Shown: positions 13,582 through 14,258 of the stretch, one piece after another | How the letters are laid out: each line of letters opens with the position of its first letter | How positions within the stretch are numbered: the first letter of the stretch is position 1 | From: Escherichia phage Av-05 | DNA: 64,000 nucleotides | Strand: one strand, 5' to 3' | Sequence record: KM190144 | The notes under the pieces: generated by a model | The model's database searches: none | Seen by the model: the letters and a program-made list of their open reading frames with translations, nothing else | Told to the model about the DNA's origin: nothing | Program-made: the position numbers and the translations under genes

Positions 13582-13596
13582 ACAATGTCAACCCCT

Positions 13597-13645
13597 CCCA
13601 TATGTCCCCATTTCAGGGACATGGGTATGTCCCCGTTTTGGGGAC
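13597..13645. promoter_or_regulatory. Pair of palindromic operator-like sites (TGTCCC-N-GGGACA) upstream of the prs/NAMPT operon
   Basis: ATGTCCC-CATTTCA-GGGACAT and TGTCCCC-GTTTT-GGGGACA tandem inverted repeats. Confidence 0.4.
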
Positions 13646-13651
13646 ACAATA

Positions 13652-13960
13652 CTAACTGATCAAATTAAACTAACATACAAGATCTATTAAATATAATACT
13701 ACGTATTATAATACTATGATCTATTTAATATGATCTAATATAATATAAATTATATAATATAATTTAATATAATACTACGTATTATATATTATAATATATT
13801 ATATAAAATTTATTTAAAATACATTAAGTCTTGAAGAATGTCAAGACTTGATATTAAATATTTTTGTTGATATGATTCGATTGAGTCGAATCGTATGGTT
13901 CGATGATTTCGAATCATAGAGTTCATAGAGTTTTGCCTGAAAGCGTGAGTCGATGAGACT
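13652..13960. repeat. Extremely AT-rich region with direct and inverted repeats (candidate replication origin / divergent control region)
   Basis: About 200 bp of >90 percent A+T with AATACTACGTATTATA twice; hairpins AAGTCTTGA/TCAAGACTT and GATTCGA/TCGAATC; tandem ATAGAGTTC. Confidence 0.4.
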
Positions 13961-14258
13961 CTTCAGGCAATACGTGAGTGTGTAAGATGCTCACTGCGCT
14001 GATAGCTTGTGACCATCTAACCCTCATGAGCCATTCTGAGATAAACCCACATCAACAAACCCTACAGGTTTGTCTCTGTGTGTTGATCTCAATCATGGAT
14101 TCGGGTTGTCACAAGTCACTATGTGACTCTGTGTGTGGGGATCTTGAATGTGTACCGGAGCATGGCGCACAGGACTGGTTCATCTGTCCGTCTCAACTGG
14201 GGCGCGGCGGGTGTTAAGGTTTAGTTTTACGTTTTGTGTGGGTGTGGAGGAGAGTTTT

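Follow-up and report, generated by a model that had tools for sequence, protein, structure and literature searches.

The primary origin of phage T7 consists of the promoters 1.1A and 1.1B followed by an A+T-rich region, and the T4 origins oriF and oriG each combine a promoter with a downstream unwinding element. Enterobacterial origins with Dam-methylated unwinding regions include oriC, with its 13-mers, and P1 oriR, with its GATC heptamers. Large inverted repeats that give genome isomers are known from chloroplasts, from herpesviruses, whose repeats carry oriS, and from the yeast 2-micron plasmid. For the rV5-like phages (Vequintavirinae), which find wide use in phage therapy and biocontrol, we know of no replication origin or initiator defined so far. 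Here we describe a control region at positions 13582–14258 of a stretch of 64,000 nucleotides (64 kb; in the following called the window) from Escherichia phage Av-05 (sequence record KM190144), an rV5-like Escherichia coli phage. From its sequence, we propose with about even confidence that this region is an early control hub with divergent promoters in which a theta-type, origin-like module is embedded, making it a candidate origin. It includes a 551-bp element (called R below) that occurs in two inverted copies per genome.

Theta origins of the RepA_N type, such as those of the staphylococcal pSK41/pTZ2162 RepA and of Vibrio cholerae PLE RepA, provide a further comparison. RepA_N iterons are mostly semi-palindromic direct repeats with inverted sub-repeats converging on a poly-A tract, and reportedly few initiators of this type occur in Gram-negative systems (PMC7145576); 4RO3 is the N-terminal domain of V. 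cholerae PLE RepA (Barth et al., PMC7145576). The phage locus likewise has semi-palindromic direct repeats with an A-rich centre, which adjoin both a protein gene and A+T-rich DNA. We consider it to go beyond an ordinary promoter region because it combines the single A+T extreme of each genome, an enrichment of GATC sites, repeats of iteron form and an initiator-like neighbouring gene.

By megablast, the closest relative of the window is phage vB_EcoM_TH18 (TH18; ~93% identity). The marmot phages 18-1-2, 19-1-2 and 24-2-1 belong to the same clade of Vequintavirinae/Avunavirus E. coli myophages.

An A+T-rich tract with GATC sites and iteron-like repeats

The A+T-rich tract at 13647–13870, a candidate DNA-unwinding element, is the single compositional extreme of the window. 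A sequence-only reading of this region had described about 200 bp of almost pure A+T with direct repeats, which we found exactly where it had been placed. The GC content is 14.5% over 13650–13870 and 8.7% in the core (13685–13822). Its lowest 100 nt (13722–13821) have 5% GC, more than 6 standard deviations from the mean of the 64 kb (40.2%, standard deviation 5.6), the next lowest value being 22%. The direct repeat AATACTACGTATTATA is present in exactly two copies, at 13695 and 13771, a count reached by no shuffle, and each copy is itself a TAATAC-nnn-GTATTA dyad (13694–13708 and 13770–13784).

Four GATC sites lie within the tract (13658, 13681, 13718 and 13732), compared with 0.10 expected (p ≤ 5e-5). 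This enrichment is kept in the homologous A+T island of five relatives; in all six genomes GATC is 15–40-fold over-represented (each p ≤ 0.002), in the common context A(A/T)AGATC(T/A). GATC-containing repeats in an A+T-rich region, beside initiator-type repeats, are likewise found in oriC and P1 oriR, and the phage encodes an adenine methyltransferase, a further likeness to these Dam-methylated origins. The island is the genome-wide minimum of GC content in TH18 and in phiTE (14% over 100 nt in a genome of 50% GC, next lowest 23%), the minimum of the 47 kb read in W70, and a local minimum in PVP-SE1, KB57, Ro1, KNP2 and CR3. At its edge a block (13647–13675; GTTAGTTTAAtTTGATcAGTTAGTATTG in the orientation of the winged-helix gene introduced below) contains a GTTAGT direct repeat and is near-identical (GTTAGTTTAA.TGAT..GTTAGTATTG) in the window, PVP-SE1, KB57 and Ro1 despite diverged surroundings.

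Next to this block lie two palindromes of 19 nt each, TGTCCCCATTTCAGGGACA at 13603–13621 and TGTCCCCGTTTTGGGGACA at 13628–13646, spaced 25 nt apart. They had already been noticed as operator-like. Read as direct repeats (13602–13646), they are semi-palindromic and iteron-like, with arms of 6–7 bp and the centres AAAAC and TGAAA; in the orientation of the winged-helix gene they are TGTCCCC-AAAAC-GGGGACA and TGTCCC-TGAAA-TGGGGACA. This is the form of RepA_N iterons, semi-palindromic direct repeats with sub-repeats that converge on an A tract, in two copies only. The TGTCCCC-n5-GGGGACA pattern has no other good match anywhere in the window. Neither strand has a U tract after the palindromes, which rules out intrinsic terminators.

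A scan of IMG/VR for the palindrome hairpin pattern gave 70 matches, none of them related to the window. Some unrelated viral contigs of high GC content carry the TGTCCCCGTTTTGGGGACA hairpin in 2–3 tandem copies ~24 nt apart (L012, 7668–7740; L055, 1–50; L031, 13530–13600), possibly by coincidence. In L055, the copies are at the contig end, adjoining a terminase-like gene (GGAAGPGKT).

A winged-helix protein resembling replication initiators

The repeats adjoin the small gene of a winged-helix protein (13156–13581, minus strand), the first gene of an operon that runs on into genes for phosphoribosyl pyrophosphate (PRPP) synthetase and NAMPT. From its GTG start the protein has 141 amino acids. 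The likely start is a TTG at 13530, which has a GGAG before it and aligns with the start positions of the orthologues, yielding 124 amino acids. The protein belongs to phrog_8453, with orthologues in 72 phage records (Seunavirus, Mydovirus, Certrevirus, the W70 group, Hena1 and others).

The structure model is a single winged-helix domain. In a fold search with this model, the closest structural neighbours were RepA_N initiators, ranked above transcription factors. Matches in BFVD were mostly to the N-terminal part of phage proteins of 250–310 amino acids, some of them named replication initiators, and weak matches in PHROGs were to "replication initiation protein" and "DnaD-like helicase loader". 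A sequence search of the PDB gave no significant match, and a word-index protein search found only 3 clusters of homologues. One orthologue in GenBank is annotated as "transcriptional regulator".

Divergent promoters and a structured leader

We scanned the region for sigma-70 consensus matches, using −35 and −10 hexamers at a spacing of 16–18 nt. The matches face both flanking operons, and the arrangement is kept in other genera. The idea of a bidirectional promoter region, put forward in the sequence-only reading, is thus well supported in silico, and the region almost certainly carries the promoters of both operons. Each of the three main sites matches 10 of the 12 consensus positions; their predicted transcript starts are near 13556 and 13809 on the minus strand and 13883 on the plus strand. 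The total number of sites in the whole region (9, compared with 5.5 ± 2.4 in shuffles) is not significant as a count alone.

The predicted promoter of the winged-helix gene (TTGACA-17-TAGCAT, 13563–13591, minus strand) is located just outside R, and the two palindromes are centred at about −56 and −81 relative to the predicted transcript start. Its TTGACA is found at the same position relative to the palindromes in PVP-SE1, KB57, W70, phiTE and CR3. A second promoter-like site on the minus strand (TTGACA-17-TATTTT, 13816–13844) is directed into the A+T tract, towards the winged-helix gene; at the equivalent place and in the same orientation, the sequence of KB57 has TTGACA-17-GATAAT. The third site, with an extended −10 element (TTGATA-17-TG-n-TATGAT, 13848–13876), is on the plus strand and points towards the plus-strand operon. 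Its −35 element stands back to back with that of the second site, inside a hairpin at 13826–13849 (AAGTCTTGA-n6-TCAAGACTT, 9-bp stem), and such back-to-back ATGTCAA..TTGA motifs are also kept in KB57 and W70.

A predicted promoter directed into a short, extremely A+T-rich tract (13844–13816, minus strand, as a consensus match only) recalls the transcription-activated origins of T7 and T4. The phage also encodes a T7-like primase-helicase and DNA polymerase, according to the TH18 annotation. It differs from these systems in that its promoters are of the host sigma-70 type and that an initiator-like protein and iteron-like sites are present as well; use of an R-loop or primer is hypothetical.

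Downstream of the plus-strand −35 element follows a second pair of semi-palindromic direct repeats (13874–13915), GATTCGA-TTGAG-TCGAATC at 13874–13892 and GGTTCGA-TGATT-TCGAATC at 13897–13915, spaced 23 nt apart. Judging from the sequence, this pair overlaps the −10 element and the +1 position of the plus-strand promoter, an operator-like position. Transcripts from this promoter would start with a long structured 5′ leader (13883–14258), the first ~260 nt of which are inside R. It contains a tandem 9-mer (13914–13932) and hairpins at 13933–13970, 13974–13994 and 14037–14091, the last with arms of 25 nt, in agreement with the several hairpins noted earlier for this region. The predicted RNA fold of 13883–14270 has −144.8 kcal/mol (z = −4.78), and none of 100 shuffles was as stable. 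In a scan of 13000–15000 against Rfam 15, only a chance-level match to mir-327 was obtained (21 bits, compared with a gathering score of 76).

Conservation of the arrangement across genera

In PVP-SE1, KB57, phiTE and W70, the orthologue of the winged-helix gene likewise heads an operon, diverging from its neighbour across a gap of 270–370 bp. The PVP-SE1-type gap shows 70–80% identity across genera and is single copy there. The order of elements is kept in PVP-SE1, KB57, W70, phiTE and CR3: back-to-back promoters, the GATC-rich A+T island, dyads or GC-rich hairpins, and TTGACA. Altogether, the synteny of gene, palindromes or GC-rich hairpins, island and divergent promoter is kept in at least five genera.

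One or two dyads directly before TTGACA are present in the window, PVP-SE1, KB57, Ro1 and W70. Their sequences differ: PVP-SE1 and KB57 have TATTCC-n5-GGGAATA twice, W70 has TATGCC-n5-GGCATA. The half-sites within a genome have all changed together, and the form and position of the dyads are kept. In phiTE and CR3, the place before TTGACA is taken by a GC-rich hairpin and scattered GTAGC-type elements. A search for related loci in IMG/VR yielded known isolates only.

Origin-like module or purely transcriptional control

Control of transcription could be the only function of the region, an alternative that we regard as a serious possibility, if a somewhat doubtful one. The sites described above would then be divergent and tandem early sigma-70 promoters, and the winged-helix protein would be an autoregulator or activator that acts on palindromes upstream of its own promoter. 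The GATTCGA dyads would be an operator that shuts off the plus-strand promoter, and the A+T tract a UP element, curved DNA or a spacer bound by nucleoid proteins. Through its duplication, R would equip both ends of the 54-kb arm that its copies bracket with the same early promoter and leader.

Much of the evidence suits this explanation, including the promoter matches on both strands, the palindromes near −56 and −81 of the winged-helix promoter, the GATTCGA pair over −10 and +1, and the orthologue annotated as a regulator. The strongly structured leader fits control at the RNA level. We also count in its favour that sigma-70-like early promoters with UP elements were described in Certrevirus (PMC7344957). 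It leaves unexplained why a single island is the A+T extreme of these genomes, though dozens of other early promoters exist, why GATC enrichment is conserved, and why the fold search ranks winged helices of replication initiators above transcription factors. Moreover, in the second R copy the palindromes follow the 3′ end of a gene and have no promoter beside them.

The transcriptional explanation is kept alive by the lack of DnaA boxes, of a RepA_N match in Pfam and of a C-terminal domain, and by the small number of repeats. These points, together with several others, weigh against an origin. The sequence-only reading had suggested the conservation of DnaA boxes or iterons as a check. With at most one mismatch, the DnaA box TTATCCACA is found neither in 13400–14400 nor in the homologous regions of five relatives, unlike in oriC and P1 oriR, and the window is a poor match to the oriC 13-mer consensus (3 mismatches), the relatives a better one (1–2 mismatches). 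A consensus scan for integration host factor (IHF) sites found none in the region or in the relatives. The palindromes at 13602–13646 are only two, not an array as in RepA_N origins, and their position before the gene's own promoter resembles that of activator or autoregulator sites.

The protein differs from RepA_N initiators as well. Its Pfam search gave no RepA_N match and only sub-threshold, generic winged helix-turn-helix (HTH) matches (Crp, TrmB, ArsR, MarR, HTH_36 and Cdc6_C), HTH families of transcription factors that also speak for the transcriptional explanation. Its 124 amino acids correspond to the N-terminal-domain-like part only, and no C-terminal domain follows the winged-helix domain. 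Its setting is a lytic Gram-negative myophage, and its binding and initiation are putative. The structure model used in the fold search was built from an alignment of 4 sequences and has a predicted local distance difference test (pLDDT) score of 79.6. In addition, length and repeat number of the A+T tract vary between lineages; such instability of sequence and length between close lineages is expected for any low-complexity DNA as well as for an unwinding element.

GC skew was discounted as evidence for an origin. In phiTE (NC_020201), the island (99248–99413) coincides to within a few bases with the whole-genome minimum of the cumulative GC skew (99264). It also separates a minus-strand arm of ~48 kb from a plus-strand arm of ~43 kb, and the skew minimum coincides with this switch in the direction of transcription, a further point on the negative side.

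The origin-like and the promoter readings are not exclusive, as initiators commonly autoregulate.

The control region contains a two-copy inverted repeat

R (13595–14145) is a two-copy inverted repeat that brackets a genome arm of ~54 kb, as assemblies of the clade show; it had been missed in the sequence-only reading. Homology between the junction contexts stops at exactly 13595 and 14145 in every case, and all four types of junction are present in independent assemblies. In ENA scaffolds, the winged-helix gene is joined via R to the operon of peg210, a metallophosphatase and an RNA ligase (L088, L098–L100), or the plus-strand operon of the window is joined via R to the 3′ end of peg1 (L092, L108). 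The TH18 record begins with the reverse complement of window 13595–13693 and ends with the reverse complement of 14022–14145. The genome consists of two arms, ~79 kb and ~54 kb long, separated by the two copies, and many contigs are one arm long (~54–57 kb or ~76–84 kb). One contig of 75.8 kb (OVXI01000004.1) has an edge of R at both ends, inverted, and MEGAHIT contigs (k=141) stop exactly 141 nt inside R. The second copy of the window's own genome lies outside the 64 kb.

The side of R with the plus-strand promoter and leader always faces the 54-kb arm, which would therefore be transcribed from its two ends towards the middle, in both cases from the same promoter and with the same leader. A leader of ~260 nt (13883–14145) common to the two operons that enter this arm brings to mind the paired nut/put antitermination sites of lambdoid phages. 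An "anti-termination protein" is annotated in TH18 as peg5, a gene of the operon ending at the second R copy.

The two R copies of one strain (winged-helix side, L089; peg1 side, L092) are identical except at 1 of ~553 positions, yet either copy differs from other lineages at 35–40 positions. The two TH18 copies also have private variants in common. This concerted evolution shows that the copies are homogenised and recombine with each other. Like the inverted repeats that form isomers in chloroplasts, herpesviruses and the 2-micron plasmid, the R copies delimit two arms of a circular or circularly permuted genome, are homogenised and carry a candidate origin. Unlike these, R is only 551 bp long, no dedicated recombinase was seen, and isomerisation within one population is hypothetical.

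R could also be mainly a substrate of recombination, its internal motifs being secondary; a crossover between the 551-bp inverted repeats would invert the 54-kb arm (flip-flop) or reorient forks. We consider this improbable, even though R is two-copy, inverted and evolving in concert and both arrangements are on record. At least seven spanning assemblies have the winged-helix gene joined through R to peg210 and peg1 joined through R to peg110, the first gene of the plus-strand operon. The first of these joints matches the single-copy relatives, where the gene diverges from the ligase/phosphoesterase operon. The alternative joint, from the winged-helix gene through R to peg110, is contiguous in the window only, which has another unexplained junction (see below), and in TH18 arises from the concatenation of two scaffolds; no independent support for it was found in GTDB representative genomes, complete E. 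coli genomes or plasmids. No recombinase is annotated beside R in the TH18 neighbours, and the called genes next to R gave no Pfam match to one, in a search that was not exhaustive. With repeats of 551 bp, R does not belong to the invertase-type segments (Mu G, P1 C, Hin), which have short inverted crossover sites and a serine invertase gene beside them. Finally, the core of R is conserved as a single copy in PVP-SE1, KB57, phiTE and W70, and its function is therefore older than the duplication.

A packaging start site or a physical end of the genome in this region is scarcely credible, and a terminus at R was rejected. Contigs of 18-1-2, 19-1-2 and 24-2-1 and many ENA and Logan contigs do end inside the region, but these ends lie exactly one k-mer inside R (141 nt, k141), the same at both copies, as is characteristic of a repeat that assembly failed to resolve. 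In addition, the terminase gene lies at a distance of ~13 kb, and the related phages CB7 and phiTE are circularly permuted headful packagers (PMC7344957).

Arrangement of the window and of the TH18 record

The "complete genome" of TH18 (ON075799) corresponds to Scaffold1 and Scaffold2 of 18-1-2-type assemblies, joined end to end at 79447|79448. The record has no equivalent of ~106 bp of the A+T tract (window 13623–13728) and, at its ends, none of the ~330 bp in the middle of the second R copy.

Up to position 41739, the window runs collinear with TH18 66148–107833; it then jumps to TH18 58383, running backwards. At this junction (41739/41740), there is no microhomology, and a minus-strand gene (TH18 peg170) is shortened by its first ~29 codons. 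No other assembly on record has the truncated product or the adjacent tail-fibre protein, and the exact proteins of the window for 14259–14546, 15108–15728, 41763–43010 and 41186–41728 are not on record either. The junction is either a strain-specific inversion of ~49 kb or an assembly chimera, and because of it the long-range arrangement of the window is to be treated with caution.

Flanking genes

The region 13582–14258 is exactly intergenic, with the minus-strand nicotinamide adenine dinucleotide (NAD) operon on its left and plus-strand genes on its right, as originally described. Beyond the winged-helix gene, the left flank contains the genes for PRPP synthetase (12350–13159) and NAMPT (10571–12286), both on the minus strand. 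On the right, the plus-strand operon begins with a gene at 14259–14549 (peg110 in TH18), whose ATG at 14259 is preceded by GGAGGAG and which encodes a protein of 96 amino acids of unknown function (phrog_18265).

Downstream of the NAD-salvage genes and transcribed in the same direction, 14 tRNA genes are located at 4068–9659 (minus strand). Their types are Phe, Leu, Pro, Asn, Lys, Ser (three), Gln, Gly, Tyr, Cys, Thr and Met. A segment of 157 bp (14542–14698), which spans the gap before the gene at 14657, shows 83% identity to the E. coli plasmid records CP057076 and CP057083. Two proteins of TH18 are annotated as split into three parts: the large subunit of the terminase, with an HNH homing endonuclease in between, and the large subunit of the anaerobic ribonucleotide reductase. 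This suggests introns, inteins or homing elements in this clade.

Discussion

A control hub with an embedded origin-like module could work as follows. The 124-residue winged-helix protein would bind as a dimer to the semi-palindromic repeats at 13602–13646. The adjoining GATC-studded tract (13647–13870) is, by its composition, probably the easiest place in the genome to unwind. The predicted sigma-70 promoters at the far edge of this tract would fire into it and away from it; transcription into the tract could contribute to its opening or to priming, as in the origins of T7 and T4, while both early operons are driven. As the assemblies show, the module was duplicated in inverted orientation together with ~260 nt of structured leader (13595–14145), and one promoter–leader unit would drive both ends of the ~54-kb arm. 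Inversion of this arm may follow from the recombination between the R copies.

A bolder version can be drawn up, to which we give little credence. R would be an origin with a minimal RepA_N-like initiator, and recombination between its copies would flip one fork, leading to double-rolling-circle concatemers and two genome isomers. The conversion of theta initiation to double-rolling-circle synthesis by a flipped fork has been proposed for the yeast 2-micron plasmid.

The inverted repeat R explains why assemblies of this clade break into pieces of ~79 kb and ~54 kb, and why at least one deposited "complete genome" is a concatenation of scaffolds that lacks part of R. It also raises the possibility of genome isomers. 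For the replication of rV5-like phages, the region provides a precise and testable origin candidate, consisting of a protein of 124 amino acids, two repeats resembling binding sites and an unwinding tract, which is kept in at least five genera. If the proposal is true, a whole group of lytic phages of enterobacteria would have a RepA_N-like fold, and the picture of such initiators as rare among Gram-negative systems would be extended.
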